Shown here: positions 15,057-46,731 of the stretch, one piece after another
Layout: every line of letters starts with the position of its first letter
Position numbering within the stretch: position 1 is the first letter of the stretch
From: a virus
Taxonomy: Duplodnaviria > Caudoviricetes
IMG/VR virus record: IMGVR_UViG_3300027740_000003
Location: 128,001-192,000 of that record
Strand: one strand, 5' to 3'
Length of the DNA: 64,000 nt
Program-made: the position numbers and the translations under genes
Notes under the pieces: generated by a model
The model's database searches: none
The model's input: only the letters and a program-made list of their open reading frames with translations
What the model was told of the DNA's origin: nothing

Positions 15057-15148
15057 CTTAATTGATTTTGGTGCGCCATCCCGGTGATGCTCCGAGGTAC
15101 TCTGGTTGGAGGCCAAATATTCTACTGTTGAATTAATGGCGCATATTA

Positions 15149-16486
15149 TTACCATTGAATATCTATATCTCCAATGCTTCTATTTATATCATTTTTCAAT
15201 TTTGCTAAAACCTCTTCAGGAACAGCTTTCACATCAGCGGGATATATTATCTTGGCATTTTCGCCAGAATCAAAATCTTTTGAAAATTCTACTATTACTA
15301 CTATTTTATTGTTTCCGTTAAATCCAACATTTTCTACAAGTCTAGCATTAACGCTATTCCAATCTGAATTTGGATTTGTATTCCTGGCTAATATTTTTAA
15401 AGCTCTAGTAATTAAATCTTGATATTTTTTAAATTCAGCTTCTGATTCTGAAGAATTTGGTTTTGTGGGTTTTTGTAAATTTTTATTATTTTCTGAATAG
15501 GCCTCCCAAGCCCTATCATAATCATAATCTTCAACATAAGAAATTTTTCTTTTTATTGATGCTTTTGCTGTATTTTTTAATAGTTCCGTTAGTCTATTTT
15601 CTAAATCCGGATGAAGAGTATTACTTATTTTTGTTTTTATTTTAGATAAAGCGGTTTGTACAAAATACATTACGTCGGCAGAATTTTCCACAAAAAGGCT
15701 TCCGAAATAAGATAATGCTGCTTGGAATCCACTGCCGCCCGCAATACGCATTTCTAAATTAATTTCATCTTCATCTAGTATTAACGAATTGCGTTGGGCC
15801 TGAATTATTATGACAATAGGGTTTTCTCTTTTTTTATTTTTTGCATTGTTTGTTGAAATATAAGCTGTCATTAAATTTGGAGTTAGGTAAATTCCTTCTA
15901 AAGAGTTTCTAGAAGACATATTAAAATTTGATTCTTCGTCTATTTGCCAAGTTCTTTTTTTCGGATTAGCTAATAGTCCAGACGACATTATACTACTCAA
16001 ATTGCTTTTATGAGTTCCATGATATAAATATATTGGAGGTGTTTTTGCTAGTTTTTCAAACAAACACGCTAATTTCTCTACTTTATCTCTGTTTAATATA
16101 TTAATAGCCTTGGAAACATCTTCGTCTGTTATTCCTGTCTCATCATTAATATGAACTAAATTGTCAGGAAATAATAACAACAGGTCGTCTATTACTACAT
16201 AACTATCTACTTCTTTTCCTTCTAACCATTCTTCAATCTCACTTATCCTATTTCCTGTTATTCCAGTGTTGCCTATTATGTAAGAAGATAATGTTGGCAA
16301 TGATTTCCTAACAAGACCCATATCGAAACGCCAATTAGAGGAAATAACTATCTTGGCACCCGTAGCTGATACAATCTTTTCTATTCTTTTTATTTTCTCA
16401 GGATCTAAATAATTGTGTCCATACTTACCGAGTTCCTTGTAAGTATTTAATACACCATCTAGATCAAGGAAAATAACAGAAACCAT
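15149..16486 (-). CDS. HAD phosphatase (HAD_SAK_2-like) fused to ART-fold-like domain
   Basis: IFLDLDGVLN..IVISSNWR..YVVIDD; then YLYHGTH..NL.SI..SGL. Confidence 0.75.
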   Translation of the reverse strand: MVSVIFLDLDGVLNTYKELGKYGHNYLDPEKIKRIEKIVSATGAKIVISSNWRFDMGLVRKSLPTLSSYIIGNTGITGNRISEIEEWLEGKEVDSYVVIDDLLLLFPDNLVHINDETGITDEDVSKAINILNRDKVEKLACLFEKLAKTPPIYLYHGTHKSNLSSIMSSGLLANPKKRTWQIDEESNFNMSSRNSLEGIYLTPNLMTAYISTNNAKNKKRENPIVIIIQAQRNSLILDEDEINLEMRIAGGSGFQAALSYFGSLFVENSADVMYFVQTALSKIKTKISNTLHPDLENRLTELLKNTAKASIKRKISYVEDYDYDRAWEAYSENNKNLQKPTKPNSSESEAEFKKYQDLITRALKILARNTNPNSDWNSVNARLVENVGFNGNNKIVVIVEFSKDFDSGENAKIIYPADVKAVPEEVLAKLKNDINRSIGDIDIQW

Positions 16487-19780: not shown

Positions 19781-20104
19781 TTATTCAATCAGATCTTTTA
19801 TTATCTTTTCGTCTTCTGAAAGTGGTACAAATTCTTCTATGGAAGTTTTTTCATACATTCCACATCTTTTGCATGGAATTAGATTTAAACAATATTTGTA
19901 TTTGTCATAATCGTATGATATACAATTGTATGTCAATGACGGGGGGCATTCTTGTTCTATTGTTATTGAATCTGATTTTACATAATATCCCTGGTCAGAA
20001 TTGTTTTTAATTTTAATATGACCAAATATTCTGCATAATAAACGATCCCACCATGTAGGCTCCCTAATTATTATTTTTCCTTTGGAAACTATTTTTACAG
20101 GCAT
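19781..20104 (-). CDS. Zn-finger-like protein with IKDLIE tag
   Basis: LCRIFGH..CKRCG; ends LSEDEKIIKDLIE. Confidence 0.8.
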   Translation of the reverse strand: MPVKIVSKGKIIIREPTWWDRLLCRIFGHIKIKNNSDQGYYVKSDSITIEQECPPSLTYNCISYDYDKYKYCLNLIPCKRCGMYEKTSIEEFVPLSEDEKIIKDLIE

Positions 20105-20592
20105 GTTGGATCAATTCTATGTATTTTATACTCGGGCCTAACTTTCTGTTGCTTCTGAGCATATCTTATTGTTCCATAAGTTCCACCTTTTTCAATACCA
20201 TTCCATACAGCTAATAAACAATCAGAATTATCTATAATCCACCTATCACGAGTATGCATCTTTTCTGGTGCATATGAACCAGGCGATACTATAACTACCT
20301 TTTCTGCAAGGCTTAATAAATGTTTAAATATGCGCTTGGTATCATCTGGCCACATCGAATCCTGACCTTCAAATGGTACTGCTGCTATAAAAGGTATATT
20401 TAGTTCTATTGCTGCCCAACAGGAAATTGTGTCAGTCCCCAGCGCCATTCCAGATATAATCTTTTCCGGAGATAATTCGTGGAACTTGTCTACGATTGCT
20501 TTGTAAACTTTATCATATACAGGATTGGGAATTTCATATCCACATCCAAGTCCGGGGGGCCGATGACCAGAGATGCCAACAATATTACTCAT
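20095..20592 (-). CDS. SLOG superfamily protein (YspA/DUF1273-like)
   Basis: ISGHRP, ISGMALGTD, AAVPF..Q...W, RDRWIIDNS..LLAVWNG..GGT..TI.YA. Confidence 0.9.
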   Translation of the reverse strand: MSNIVGISGHRPPGLGCGYEIPNPVYDKVYKAIVDKFHELSPEKIISGMALGTDTISCWAAIELNIPFIAAVPFEGQDSMWPDDTKRIFKHLLSLAEKVVIVSPGSYAPEKMHTRDRWIIDNSDCLLAVWNGIEKGGTYGTIRYAQKQQKVRPEYKIHRIDPTCL

Positions 20593-20687: not shown

Positions 20688-20760
20688 TGGCTCTGAGTGT
20701 AGTCGAAACACTGATCGGGTTTTTAGAGAACCCTGCTTTAGACCGCTAAGCTACAGAGCC
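20688..20760 (-). tRNA. tRNA with CUA anticodon (amber suppressor)
   Basis: GGCTCTG/CAGAGCC-A acceptor, GCTT/AAGC D-arm, GGGTT-CTCTAAA-AACCC anticodon arm, AGTGT-TTCGACT-ACACT T-arm; all stems perfect. Confidence 0.9.
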
Positions 20761-20763
20761 ATT

Positions 20764-20786
20764 TGATCACCATTTTATGGTGATCA
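20764..20786. repeat. 10-bp perfect inverted repeat between PTH2-like gene and CUA tRNA
   Basis: TGATCACCAT-TTT-ATGGTGATCA. Confidence 0.7.
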
Positions 20787-20791
20787 TTTGT

Positions 20792-21124
20792 TCACTTGCT
20801 CATTGCTAATGGTAATTTCCTTAACAATCTCTTTGCAGCGTCTCCTGGTTCAAAAGCCACTGCTGTTATCTGATTGTTTAAATCTGGCTCCCTAAACACA
20901 GAATATCTTATTTCTTTGCTTGCCGCAATATCTGTGAAATAAGATAACTGTGATTCATTTTCACATTCTAGGACAGCTAGATAATCAGAGTCTAAATGCC
21001 ACTCTTCTGTTATTTCCGTATGTTCTTTTGCAAATAGAAGAGCAGCATGAATCCCTTGAGCTAACATTGCTCCTGGTTTTATGTCTTTACGTATTACTAC
21101 ATAAAGTTTAGTTCCCTAAATCAT
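20792..21124 (-). CDS. peptidyl-tRNA hydrolase 2 (PTH2)-like protein with in-frame TAG at codon 3
   Basis: ATG ATT TAG GGA ACT AAA CTT TAT GTA GTA ATA CGT AAA GAC = MI*GTKLYVVIRKD, then AQGIHAAL, FREPDLNNQITAVAF, KLPL. Confidence 0.75.
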
Positions 21125-21462
21125 GCCGCCACCTCTTCAATTTTAGTAGCGTACTTAGCAAAAACCCAGGCTCTAATTTCTTCTCTCAGATTCCCGTCTT
21201 TGAGAAATTCTTGGAAAGATAAATCATATCCTTCGTATTTTCCAAAGTAATATACATCATTACATATACTATATATTAGACAAGAAAGAAAACTATTTCT
21301 TCCTATTTCTGGAAAATTATCTTCATTTATTTTTCTTTCAAGTTTCACATATGCAGCTCCTCTTAGGAACGCATAAGCAAGAGCTTGAGTTCTAGATAAA
21401 TAATGATGTTTCTTTGCTAGATTTTTAAATACCTTCAGCGCTTCTTTTTTATCAAATGTCAT
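21121..21462 (-). CDS. hypothetical protein upstream of PTH2-like gene
   Basis: R..ALAYAFLRG..Y..LE motif; TGA overlaps next ATG. Confidence 0.7.
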   Translation of the reverse strand: MTFDKKEALKVFKNLAKKHHYLSRTQALAYAFLRGAAYVKLERKINEDNFPEIGRNSFLSCLIYSICNDVYYFGKYEGYDLSFQEFLKDGNLREEIRAWVFAKYATKIEEVAA

Positions 21463-21741
21463 CACGAAACCTCCTTGTCTCGATTTACAAGGTATCGAGC
21501 TACCTTTGTAGGGTATAGTCAAACAAATATACCAAAAACAATTATTGAATTAACTATTTCTAAGGAGGGCCACGAATATTAATCTACGCCATTTTAAATA
21601 CCTTTAACCTTTCTGACAGCTTAGCTGTCAATCATATTCCTAATTATTCCCAGCTTCCTCGACATGTACATGGAAAATGTTTCTTTTATTCCTAGGAACG
21701 GCCTATTACTATATACCCTGTGTCCTTGGAATAAAACTTTT

Positions 21742-22176
21742 TCATAGTGGCACTTTATATGGTTTTTGATAGACATATTTATACCAATAACATTTAGAAC
21801 AATGTATTAGTGCTGCAAATTTATAATAGCTTTCATTTTTACCTGTGTGTTTCTTGTTAATCGGAATAATTTTATTGTTATTGGCTATTTTTATATTATG
21901 TTTAAGTTCTCCTATAATTCTTCCTTTAGCTTTAACTTCTGATAAATTATCATCTATTTCGTCAATAATGAAAACGGAATATTTATATATGTTTCTATTG
22001 TTATTGATTCTGCTAAACGATTCTTCTATGCCACAATCATAATCTTGATATTTGCCCATTTTACATTTATAATCTTTAATTTCTAATAAAGAAAAAGTTT
22101 CAGATCCGCAGTAGGGACAACGATATTGCCCTTGTTTCAATTTGGTTAAACTAATTTGGGCTTGAAAATTATTCAA
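21742..22176 (-). CDS. CxxC-containing hypothetical protein
   Basis: CPYCGS...CSKC; TTG start. Confidence 0.6.
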   Translation of the reverse strand: MNNFQAQISLTKLKQGQYRCPYCGSETFSLLEIKDYKCKMGKYQDYDCGIEESFSRINNNRNIYKYSVFIIDEIDDNLSEVKAKGRIIGELKHNIKIANNNKIIPINKKHTGKNESYYKFAALIHCSKCYWYKYVYQKPYKVPL

Positions 22177-22650
22177 TGATATCCTTTATCATCAAATTGA
22201 CTAATATCTCTTGTTCAAATTCTTTCCAATCTGGACATAATAATATTATTGCAATATCATATCTAGATTGTTCTATTGCAGTTTTTTGAACTTCTTTTGA
22301 AGGATTGTTTATAAATTGAACAGATCGGGAGGATTCTTTATAAATCGAATAGAGCTTCCATTTTGTTTAACCGCTAATAATTGCATTTCCTTTGAAGGGT
22401 TCTTTATAAGTTGAATAGAATATCCATATTGTTTAACTGCTTCTAATTGTGCTTCTTTAGAAGGGTTCTTTATATATTGAATAGACCATCCACTTCGTTT
22501 AATAGCTTCTAATTGTACTTCTTTAGAAGGATTTTTTATATATCGAATAGAATATTCATCTTGTTTAACTGCTTTTAAACACTCTGATTCATTTTCTGGA
22601 TCGAACCCTAGTTTGTTTATAATAAATTTTTTGATTGATGTATTAGTCAT
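22169..22650 (-). pseudogene. DUF4116-like 22-aa repeat protein, frameshifted near 22320
   Basis: repeats SKEVQLEAVKQ..SIQYIKNP break out of frame; second frame continues ..CPDWKEFEQEILVNLMIKDIIE*. Confidence 0.8.
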
Positions 22651-26920: not shown

Positions 26921-27157
26921 CTACTCTATTATGTCTTTTATTATTACTTCGGCACAACTCAAAATTTCATTTTTATAAATTCTCCCCCTAGAACAAAACT
27001 TGGGATAAAAATGAAAACTATCTCTTTTAAAATCAATTCTAATTTTTGAAACACATTTCGCACATTCGTACCAAACTACATTGTTGGTAAATCTGCCAAG
27101 CTCAACAAGTACATGATCTTGTGCAATATTGTTGGGAACAATATATTTTTTAATCAT
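26921..27157 (-). CDS. H-CxxC-C zinc-finger protein with IKDIIE tag (TAG stop)
   Basis: DHVL..YECAKC..LSCAEVIIKDIIE. Confidence 0.85.
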   Translation of the reverse strand: MIKKYIVPNNIAQDHVLVELGRFTNNVVWYECAKCVSKIRIDFKRDSFHFYPKFCSRGRIYKNEILSCAEVIIKDIIE

Positions 27158-33237: not shown

Positions 33238-33630
33238 TTATGCACACAATATAAACCTTATAGGTTCTTTAACAATTTCCCAACTAAATATACATTTTAA
33301 ACTTTTATAGTCGTATTCTGTTTTATATGGGACAACAACCGCACCAATAAGAGAACCATATTGGTTTACATATTTACATTTTAAATTATTCATGGCATTA
33401 GTGATTTTGTTAAATTTTCTTTCTCTAATTTCACCTGGTGTCAAAGAAACTGTTTCGATTATTCTTTCCATATTATTCCTAAGAGGCCTGGGAGAGATTT
33501 GAACTCTCGACCCGGAACTTATCTTTGGATCTTCCAGACTTGAACTGGAAAGAGACGTGTATCTAGATCCCACAGGTTCCCGCTCTTCCTCTGAGCTACC
33601 AGGCCTTGTATTAAAAAAAATATCACTCAA
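33238..33630 (-). CDS. hypothetical protein ending RFILCA (FLVCA-type tag)
   Basis: 130-aa ORF; C-terminus TTT ATA TTG TGT GCA TAA. Confidence 0.7.
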   Translation of the reverse strand: MSDIFFNTRPGSSEEEREPVGSRYTSLSSSSLEDPKISSGSRVQISPRPLRNNMERIIETVSLTPGEIRERKFNKITNAMNNLKCKYVNQYGSLIGAVVVPYKTEYDYKSLKCIFSWEIVKEPIRFILCA

Positions 33631-34353: not shown

Positions 34354-34605
34354 CTACTCTATTATGTTTTTGATTATATACTCGGCACAGGACAATTTGT
34401 CCAATTCATAGTTCTTATTAATTATGAATAATGAATGGTAAAATCCACAGGAACCGTCTCTAAAAATGTGAAAATAAGTTCTACATATTGAACATTTATA
34501 TTTCGAGCAATAAGTATCTGACAATTTACTATAATTGTTTTCTATAAAATGAAACTCATGATCTTTTTTATATTTAGTTGGTATTGAATACCAAGGAGCT
34601 TCCAT
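34354..34605 (-). CDS. H-CxxC-C zinc-finger protein with IKNIIE tag (TAG stop)
   Basis: KKDHEF..YKCSIC..LSCAEYIIKNIIE. Confidence 0.85.
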   Translation of the reverse strand: MEAPWYSIPTKYKKDHEFHFIENNYSKLSDTYCSKYKCSICRTYFHIFRDGSCGFYHSLFIINKNYELDKLSCAEYIIKNIIE

Positions 34606-44730: not shown

Positions 44731-46731
44731 TTATACATCCTCCACAGATTCATCATATCCAAGCAATTTGTCTTTAGACTTGGCGCCAAATTTATCTACA
44801 ATTATCTTTTGCCATTTTGTCTGTTCAATAATCGCCGAAGCTTCACCTTTTGTTATATTTGTTATATCTAAATCAAATTTTATTTTCCCAGCAAACATTA
44901 GATTCTCAATAAACTTCTTTTGAGAATCACTTGCTAATGTCTTCTTCCATTTAGCGTCTCCCCTAACCAAAGGCAATACTCCAGCTTTCCTAGCCGATTC
45001 TACAATATAACTTTTAGCATCTTGCTTTGTTAACCTGTCATCTTTCAATACAACAAGATCATTCTTAACCTTGGTCATTTCTACAATACGACCTTTGTCG
45101 GTAGTAGTTGGAAAACACAAATAGAATATCCTGTCCACTTTCTTTTTATCTTTTTGTTCAGATATCTCTTGGAACTCATGTTTTACTTTAAGATCAGATA
45201 TTGATACAAATTCCTTCCTTCCAGACATCCATCCGTCAGAATTAAATTCTACTTTTACTTCTAATCCCAGTCCAATATCAACAATTTTCCCTTCGCCAAA
45301 CGTATCATGCATAACATTAATAGGATATTGTTTTACAGCACTTATTGTTGGTTTAATTGTTAGCGGTTTCCACGTTGATTTGTCAATTATTTTATCCAAC
45401 AACTGTTCTTCGGTCCACGTAATAAGCCTTTGATCATTTGCAACAACCCATGAGGTTATCTGCATAAAATCGTCATCTGTAGTCCATCGGTCTTGGTCTT
45501 GATGAATCATAAATACGGGGAAATTGATAAGCTTTTCTGCAATATGGTCATTGGTTGGGTTTTTGCCAGTACCAGATCCTTGCAGCTCTTTCCAAGTTGG
45601 AAGATTTGCTGTTAAGATATTATTGGCTCGTTTCTTTTCTCCATACATATCACCATGTTGAGCCATATCCTCAAATGTGATACGAGATTGTTTTACTTTA
45701 AGCTTATCGTATACATCAACTATAATAGCATCAGTTTTGCCTGGATATTTTCGCAATGGCCGTCCAGCCATTTGAAGATAAAGCCCAAGGCTTCTTGTTG
45801 GTCTAGCAATAGTTGCAAAGCTTAAATGTGGAACATTCCAACCTTCCGTGCAAACCAAATTATTAACGAAGCAATCTATTTCACCGCCTCTAACTTTTTC
45901 CATAAAATATCTTCTTTGTTCTTTTGGCGTATCTCCATAAACCTCAGCCGCTCTAATGTCATTTTTTAATAATTCATACATATCATGAGAATGAGCAACA
46001 TCAACACCAAATAATATCCCCTGTCTTTTTTGGTCTTTAACTAGCTCTATAATGCGCTTTGCAATTAATTTATTTCTTTCTTCGGTATTTACTGTTTGAG
46101 ACAGTTCTTTTGTGGCAAAATCTCCCATTTGTGTTTTAACATTGGCTAAAGATACATTAGATTTTAATATTTCTGGAACTGCTGCAATTAGATATCCATG
46201 TGATATAGCTGTTCCTATATCCATTTCTAATAAAACTTCTCCTAGAGGCAGTTCATCACCAGAAAACCTCCAAGGGGTAGCTGTAAGTCCAAGAATTTTT
46301 GTTCTGGGAAACCAATCTTTTAAATTTTGATATGTTTTATTTTTCTCAGAAAAATGATGATATTCATCTATAATTATTAGATCTGGTTTGAATCCTTTTA
46401 AATGAGATCTTCTTCCGGCTAATGTCTGAACAGACCCAACAATAATATCGCTATTATTATCGGCTTTAAATTCTGCCATTTCTTTTGATAATTTTTGTGT
46501 CCATGATACTGTTTCTGACAAACAATCATTAGCCTGATCAATAAGCTCCTCCCTATGGGCAACCCAAAGAATTTTTAAACCACTAATTTTATCAATGCAC
46601 AATGATGCGGATTTGGTTTTTCCAGTGCCACAAGGAAGAATGATTGTGGCCAATTTCCCATCAGTATTAATCCATTTCTCAAAATTTTCAACAATCCTTT
46701 CTTGATATCTTCTTTTCTCAAATTGAATCAT
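44731..46731 (-). CDS. SF2 DEAD/DEAH (ResIII/IRC3-like) helicase
   Basis: LPCGTGKT, AHREELI.Q, IIDEYHH, GLTATP, TEGW.VP, YLQM.GR.LR. Confidence 0.92.
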   Translation of the reverse strand: MIQFEKRRYQERIVENFEKWINTDGKLATIILPCGTGKTKSASLCIDKISGLKILWVAHREELIDQANDCLSETVSWTQKLSKEMAEFKADNNSDIIVGSVQTLAGRRSHLKGFKPDLIIIDEYHHFSEKNKTYQNLKDWFPRTKILGLTATPWRFSGDELPLGEVLLEMDIGTAISHGYLIAAVPEILKSNVSLANVKTQMGDFATKELSQTVNTEERNKLIAKRIIELVKDQKRQGILFGVDVAHSHDMYELLKNDIRAAEVYGDTPKEQRRYFMEKVRGGEIDCFVNNLVCTEGWNVPHLSFATIARPTRSLGLYLQMAGRPLRKYPGKTDAIIVDVYDKLKVKQSRITFEDMAQHGDMYGEKKRANNILTANLPTWKELQGSGTGKNPTNDHIAEKLINFPVFMIHQDQDRWTTDDDFMQITSWVVANDQRLITWTEEQLLDKIIDKSTWKPLTIKPTISAVKQYPINVMHDTFGEGKIVDIGLGLEVKVEFNSDGWMSGRKEFVSISDLKVKHEFQEISEQKDKKKVDRIFYLCFPTTTDKGRIVEMTKVKNDLVVLKDDRLTKQDAKSYIVESARKAGVLPLVRGDAKWKKTLASDSQKKFIENLMFAGKIKFDLDITNITKGEASAIIEQTKWQKIIVDKFGAKSKDKLLGYDESVEDV

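Follow-up and report, generated by a model that had tools for sequence, protein, structure and literature searches.

Why should a phage gene for a peptidyl-tRNA hydrolase-like protein carry an amber stop at its third codon, with a tRNA that could read this stop directly behind it? The question arises from a stretch of 64,000 nucleotides (nt), positions 128,001 to 192,000 of the IMG/VR record IMGVR_UViG_3300027740_000003, which was analysed as a whole and is called the window below; its coordinates are counted from its first letter. The window is part of a single contig of 435,004 base pairs (bp), the genome of a giant soil phage, 100% complete according to CheckV. On the minus strand of the window, a gene of the PTH2 family with an in-frame TAG is followed by a tRNA gene with the anticodon CUA. 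Judged from the sequences, the pair is probably a two-part cassette, in which a gene is accompanied by the suppressor tRNA on which it depends. Since dozens of unrelated phages share the same layout, the locus resembles a natural switch of translation more than a broken gene.

The PTH2-like coding frame (20792–21124, minus strand) comprises 110 codons including the TAG and ends with a TGA at 20792–20794. Its start codon, an ATG at 21122–21124, overlaps the TGA of the upstream gene (21123–21121) in the form ATGA (21121–21124), and is followed by ATT (21121–21119, Ile) and by the in-frame TAG at codon 3 (21116–21118), the putative gate. The minus strand thus reads ATG ATT TAG GGA ACT AAA CTT TAT GTA GTA ATA CGT AAA GAC. 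A Shine–Dalgarno (SD)-like hexamer, GAGGTG (21130–21135, minus strand; direct sequence reading), lies 5 nt upstream of the ATG, separated from it by the spacer GCGGC, and sits within the final codons (EEVAA) of the upstream gene; it is absent from the first-pass annotation of this DNA. Between the TAG and the first strand of the predicted fold (β-1, within KLYVVIRKD), none of the six start-like codons ATG, GTG, TTG, CTG, ATT and ATC is found in the window locus. The first-pass annotation had noticed that no alternative start precedes this strand; its positions for the ATGA overlap, the TAG and the anticodon (20724–20726) are likewise exact by sequence reading and ARAGORN. The upstream gene (21121–21522, minus strand) encodes up to 133 residues, has no assigned function and no match in Pfam or PHROG, and has homologs in the same position in L013, L019 and L024, three of the related loci described below. 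Because its stop overlaps the PTH2-like start, the arrangement suggests translational coupling between the two genes.

The further claim of that annotation, a module in which the full-length protein is made only with the help of the suppressor, is backed by the relatives of the locus and by the co-variation of stop and anticodon among them. The set contains 60 viral loci and 80 metagenome loci, whose proteins, grouped at 80% identity, form 61 clusters (35 viral and 26 further metagenome clusters). A cluster is termed gated when a start codon is followed by 1–10 codons, a stop, 1–12 codons without ATG, GTG or TTG, and then the β-1 pattern KLxVVxRxD. Gates of this type occur in 43 of the 61 clusters (25/35 viral and 18/26 metagenome); 39 of them use TAG as the stop, two use TGA and two use TAA. 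A tRNA-CUA is present in 26 of the TAG clusters, both TGA clusters (L003 and L113) adjoin a tRNA-UCA, and one TAA cluster (L057) adjoins a tRNA-UUA, the other TAA cluster being a 1.9-kb contig without a tRNA. Furthermore, a suppressor tRNA lies on the same strand within 3 kb of the gene at 49 of the 60 viral loci, often as the sole tRNA there, and a purine directly follows the stop in 42 of the 43 gated clusters. Clades farther away, including Lak-like phages, have ordinary starts, yet a suppressor tRNA still stands beside the gene in them. A third conserved gene common to more than seven of the 35 clusters was not found. Among cellular genomes there are only three matches, all on contigs binned into archaeal metagenome-assembled genomes, and one of these contigs (425,361 bp, as viral contig L018) is probably phage.

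The nearest relatives, L013 (approximately 71% protein identity) and L094 (77%), come from other samples and share the order of start codon, NNN, TAG and GGA. L013 begins with ATG AAA TAG GGA CAG AAA ATG and L094 with GTG AAA TAG GGA GAA AAA CTT, in both cases at the same place as the window gene, and a tRNA-CUA lies downstream in both. The stretch GAAGAGGT(G/A)GCGGC is common to all three loci, and a contig of a relative from a groundwater run spans the region corresponding to 21021–21138 of the window, whereas none of the Logan contigs from the likely source run, a soil metagenome, covers the locus. Between the window and L013, 44 codons are identical, 32 differ synonymously and 35 non-synonymously; that is, 42% of the codons for the same residue differ. 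By this codon pattern the frame behind the TAG is under constraint. The layout is beyond chance, because the TAG is kept in both relatives despite such synonymous change and the gate recurs in so many clusters.

The tRNA itself (20688–20760, minus strand) begins 31 nt past the stop of the PTH2-like gene and folds into a sound cloverleaf according to ARAGORN and Rfam (RF00005, 56.7 bits, a full-length match of positions 1–71), in line with the original description. It possesses a 7-bp acceptor stem, the discriminator base A and a seven-nucleotide anticodon loop, CU-CUA-AA, with U33 before the anticodon and a purine at position 37; the CCA end is not encoded. In the ortholog of L013, compensatory changes are located in the acceptor stem (pair 6:67), in the whole anticodon stem and in the T stem. 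Because both sides of the stem pairs have changed, the structure of the tRNA-CUA is evidently under selection. The tRNA adjoins the PTH2-like gene and lies more than 5 kb from the tRNA clusters of the genome; the common strand, the short gap and the fact that nothing in this gap matches a promoter well suggest that the two are co-transcribed. The gap also holds the hairpin reported at first reading, a 10-bp palindrome with a 3-nt loop (20764–20786) ending 3 nt 5′ of the tRNA, and L013 has a 6-bp hairpin 5 nt 5′ of its tRNA. The hairpin was rejected as a general feature of suppressor tRNAs, since the 40 nt upstream of them are no more prone to folding than the corresponding stretch before other tRNAs (p = 0.74). 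An origin of the tRNA from the phage tRNA-Gln(CUG) was ruled out as well, the identity being only 38%, and an Rfam search finds no theta or HDV-like ribozyme, nor any other Rfam family, next to the tRNA-CUA.

The assignment of the protein to the PTH2 family holds in both sequence and model. The Pfam profile PF01981 matches with 40.2 bits against a cut-off of 23 (39.4 bits in the search of the whole genome), aligning residues 6–96 with profile positions 2–102, and the protein belongs to the phage family phrog_1866. A family-profile search of the PDB finds the Pth2 structure 2zv3 (E 5.7e-10), with the alignment starting at chain residue 2. In the AlphaFold2 model of the 110-residue read-through product (predicted local distance difference test, pLDDT, 92.3; predicted template modelling score, pTM, 0.86), strands are formed by residues 6–12 (β-1, KLYVVIR), 48–54, 74–79 and 85–91, while residues 1–5 are coil. 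The top 14 matches of the model in a Foldseek search of the PDB are all Pth2 entries, with template modelling (TM) scores of 0.61–0.83, the best of them at 0.77–0.83. The modelled protein thus has the α/β fold of Pth2 with its N-terminal strand in the central sheet. Gene callers report only a product of 91 residues from Met20 (P0001). Met20 (21067) falls within the modelled helix 17–34, and a protein started there would be without β-1 and would lose three residues from the beginning of helix 1. The call of 91 residues is probably wrong, which is a warning for annotators.

The genome around the cassette uses the standard code and is not a code-15 (TAG-sense) genome. Frames of at least 100 codons cover 88% of the genome and 93–100% of its structural region under the standard code. 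TAG terminates 58 of approximately 627 called genes (9%, the rarest stop) and eight of the 102 long minus-strand frames in the window; the first-pass annotation correctly took it for a real stop elsewhere, as after IKDIIE at 26921 and IKNIIE at 34354. Coding sequence flanks TAG on both sides no more often than it flanks TAA and TGA, and treating TAG as sense brings no greater gain than the TGA control does. Wherever a TAG has an in-frame coding extension, either a start lies within 2–18 codons or the extension is an antisense frame. In a scan of the genome for short frames of a few codons, from start to stop, that run on into startless coding sequence, the PTH2-like gene is the only TAG case with an SD before the ATG. 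Candidate in-frame TAGs at genome positions 100286, 102653, 10708 and 45995–46582 have no family matches, and ordinary stops explain them equally well; the TAG at 100286 follows ...DGDAWGIYW, and that at 45995–46582 (L069) follows MIKGGLFL, with no start for the next 30 codons. The scan for further in-frame TAGs, as proposed at first reading, therefore yields no convincing case in the genome. Three near-complete giant relatives (G001, G002 and G005; 332, 425 and 369 kb) also use the standard code in the 120 kb sampled from each, which supports local suppression and not genome-wide recoding. In addition, the genome carries 22 tRNAs (ARAGORN), a transfer-messenger RNA (tmRNA) and a truncated gene resembling release factor 1 (RF1); neither SmpB nor a class Ic aminoacyl-tRNA synthetase (GlnRS/GluRS family) was found in it.

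Several observations weigh against the cassette as described here, and some of them are shared with other explanations of the locus. In one of these explanations, which is unlikely, ATG-ATT-TAG would be a two-codon upstream mini-frame of the start–stop or bar-minigene type, and the enzyme would arise from non-canonical re-initiation after the TAG or at Met20. The cultured mycobacteriophages Bxz1 and Myrna (cluster C) carry (A/G)TG TAG GTG together with a tRNA-CUA, and their SD is best spaced for the second GTG, directly after the TAG, so the gate may be leaky in this cluster. L013 has an ATG four codons after the TAG, where the window has CTT; in relatives the stop is often followed by ATT or ATC, both weak starts; and AGGAG lies 2 nt 5′ of Met20 in the window, so some truncated product is possible. 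By these cases (L013, Bxz1 and Myrna) the gate is not absolute everywhere. However, L094, as well as the window, lacks any start-like codon of the six between the TAG and β-1, the codon after the stop is a non-start (GTA, GTT, GGA, GGC, AAT or AGA) in many clusters, and the Met20 product would be missing the elements of the fold named above. A mini-frame also leaves the match between the type of stop and the neighbouring anticodon unexplained. Alternatively, the UAG might be read at a low level by near-cognate tRNAs of the host or by another suppressor, with the tRNA-CUA serving elsewhere, for example in genes of the host or of competitors. Such a source of readthrough would suit the 12 of 39 TAG-gated clusters without a suppressor tRNA in the available DNA (many of them on short contigs) and L019, which has a TAG gate with only a tRNA-UUA within 3 kb; it is very unlikely, however, in view of the tight linkage at 49 of 60 loci and of an anticodon that fits the stop in every TGA or TAA cluster with a suppressor tRNA. 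A pseudogene, an assembly error or a phage in transition to a TAG-sense code is most improbable. The 91-residue gene call, the rarity of TAG among the stops and two candidate in-frame TAGs elsewhere in the genome would agree with it, but the TAG is kept across independent samples and in the gates of 43 clusters, the frame behind it is constrained, the structural region is almost filled by standard-code open reading frames, and reading TAG as sense gains no more than the TGA control. The suggestion that the locus is a stage in TAG reassignment finds no support in this genome either, in which no other in-frame TAG is convincing; the cassette appears to be old and widespread in standard-code phages.

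Further points against the cassette concern the suppressor tRNA, the stops and the enzyme. An active amber suppressor should extend the 58 TAG-ended phage genes and host genes, yet back-up stops are not enriched after TAG (median 18.5 codons, the same as for TAA). The truncated RF1-like factor might counteract suppression. Its gene lies outside the window (G000:C1:343012–343587; L071:114–689, minus strand) and encodes 191 residues, which match the RF1 model with 158 bits at positions 157–330 and contain GGQ, with SPT where RF1 has PxT and RF2 has SPF; short frames with an RF-1 domain are found in three of five relatives, one of them approximately 3 kb from the PTH2 gene. Among the 44 distinct suppressor tRNAs linked to the gene in relatives, the acceptor stems are unrelated and each of the four bases occurs as discriminator, and because of these differences no amino-acid identity can be assigned; meanwhile, such variety fits a gate in an unstructured leader that tolerates any residue. 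Glutamine had been considered as the inserted residue, and an alignment of homologs had been proposed at first reading to find the residue at codon 3. Homologs such as MKQIHSKL do show Gln, but the argument is circular, since the Q in the database is itself the TAG (P0009 translates only with TAG=Q). No RNA run was found to hold the locus.

As for the enzyme, the phage protein shares with archaeal and eukaryotic Pth2 (PF01981; 2zv3, 3erj, 1xty and 1q7s) the same fold, at the TM scores of 0.77–0.83 given above, and the sequence motifs around QxxHA and the last strands. Residues Q23, H26, E79, D81 and T87 are invariant in alignment A1. In contrast, its identity to the solved structures is only 19–29%, and it does not reach the NCBIfam equivalog level (27.1 bits against 126 for NF003314, and 22.4 against 82 for TIGR00283). 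Compared with 2zv3, REPD replaces RDAG (the DAG of Pth2), and the lysine of the canonical GK loop has no conserved counterpart in alignment A1. With a score so far below the equivalog cut-offs and the loop lysine not kept, the substrate may differ from that of Pth2. The protein is best regarded from its sequence relationships as a member of a separate phage-borne subfamily, and the name PTH2-like is used for this reason.

How might a cassette of suppressor tRNA and gated gene work? Ribosomes would load at the SD GAGGTG, or come from the overlapping upstream gene, start at the ATG at 21124, add Ile and then meet the UAG at codon 3. If RF1 acts there, only a dipeptide would result, or formylmethionyl-Ile-tRNA would drop off. 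If charged tRNA-CUA is present, a residue would be inserted into the unstructured leader of five residues, and the complete 110-residue protein with the PTH2 fold would be made, so that the PTH2-like output would track the activity of the suppressor tRNA. The tRNA is probably made on the same transcript and would be charged by a synthetase of the host. The early position of the stop may have been chosen for the slow action of release factors on very short nascent chains and for the tolerance of any residue there. In minigenes, termination slows and drop-off of peptidyl-tRNA rises as the frame shortens from eight codons to two, and short minigenes generate the substrate of peptidyl-tRNA hydrolase (PMC2490762). 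For this reason, namely that short frames yield the substrate of such an enzyme, the choice of a hydrolase gene is suggestive. The preferred purpose would be an enzyme that recycles tRNAs from the peptidyl-tRNA or N-blocked aminoacyl-tRNA accumulating during UAG readthrough; alternatively, the link might serve as a delay timer or might brake the suppressor.

A more ambitious and decidedly tentative proposal, put forward as a whole, is that the cassette is a self-contained sensor and effector of stop readthrough. The UAG-ended minigene of two codons would gauge RF1 against the charged suppressor, the hydrolase would clear tRNAs trapped by drop-off or stalling, and the gene would be the main or only in-genome target of orphan suppressor tRNAs in standard-code giant phages.

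Among known systems, the phages of code 15, which read TAG as Gln, are close in that a stop-reading tRNA of the phage enables the translation of phage genes with that stop in frame; a timing device has been proposed for them, and their "code change module" consists of a suppressor tRNA, a synthetase and a release factor (10.1101/2021.08.26.457843). In the present case, however, the genome is a standard-code one in which TAG ends 58 genes, one small gene is the single clear client, and the stop is in every case confined to the first few codons instead of being scattered. The partner here is PTH2-like, whereas the words "peptidyl" and "hydrolase" occur zero times each in the text of that preprint. 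A second point of comparison is prfB, the gene of release factor 2, which is autoregulated through an early in-frame UGA: a +1 frameshift is needed, and a shortage of the release factor is sensed. As in prfB, a translation-related gene with an early in-frame stop would report through its own output on the handling of that stop; the cassette would differ in needing no change of frame, and its signal would be the presence of the suppressor tRNA.

When Pth is limiting, expression of the lambda bar gene and of other minigenes of 2–8 codons sequesters tRNA in the form of peptidyl-tRNA (PMC2490762 and references therein). These minigenes resemble the start of the PTH2-like gene in having a strong SD and an AUG followed by a single sense codon (here Ile) and the stop; they terminate slowly and shed peptidyl-tRNA, the substrate of peptidyl-tRNA hydrolase. 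Here, by contrast, the mini-frame continues in frame into a hydrolase-like gene, and a tRNA able to read its stop accompanies it. Xanthomonas phage XacN1 is a standard-code jumbo phage that also carries tRNA-CUA genes, for which its authors sought suppressor targets and found none (PMC5852040). Its own PTH2 genes are ungated and far from its tRNAs, and it was dropped as a cultured example of the cassette; the cassette offers a target for orphan suppressor tRNAs such as those of XacN1, in other phages. A literature search on suppressor tRNAs and phages together with PTH2 or peptidyl-tRNA hydrolase found no description of the pairing.

Other features of the window and the genome stand beside the cassette. 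Directly after the tRNA-CUA, a protein of 165 residues on the minus strand (20095–20592) belongs to the YpsA/SLOG (DprA-like) group with 56 bits in Pfam, and a neighbour of this kind recurs in L013, L036 and L037 only. At 15149–16486 (minus strand), a protein of 445 residues contains the HAD domain of "Swiss Army Knife" RNA repair proteins and adjoins a tRNA-Cys. Two further tRNAs on the minus strand, at 33484–33605 and 15072–15142, are found by Rfam only and missed by ARAGORN; the former is 122 nt long and may contain an intron. Outside the window, the tRNA at G000:C1:79260–79333 (L072:62–134, minus strand; Rfam 45.6 bits) has the anticodon loop CUUAAG, which cannot be fitted to seven bases, and ARAGORN gives it an anticodon of two bases; it may be an odd UUA-type tRNA or a reader of four bases. 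The tmRNA is also located outside the window (G000:C1:97812–98149) and encodes the tag ANDNADLTAAAA, and in another carrier of the cassette (contig P0005) SmpB lies approximately 0.5 kb from the PTH2 gene. The IKDIIE–stop tails seen at the C-termini of proteins coincide with a strand-specific DNA motif close to GATAAAGGAYATAATAGAAT, which occurs at 22171–22190 and at 25 other places in the window and at 75 in the genome, 72 of them on the coding strand and three on the other (up to four mismatches). An SD-like AAGGA and a TATAAT-like box also lie in the motif, as does the start of the next gene, which overlaps the stop. Rather than a protein tag, the tail may therefore be what an intergenic element for control or coupling leaves as a by-product.

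Many large phages with the standard code carry suppressor tRNAs, and the cassette would provide a first natural target for them, in the form of a simple and testable circuit that consists of a tRNA and an early stop codon. It would link readthrough with the recycling of peptidyl-tRNA, in a genome that also encodes a tmRNA and a truncated protein resembling a release factor, and would offer a natural design for suppressor-dependent control of genes. If the proposal of a sensor and effector is true, the primary role of suppressor tRNAs in these phages would be regulatory or directed at the host, rather than the decoding of phage genes.
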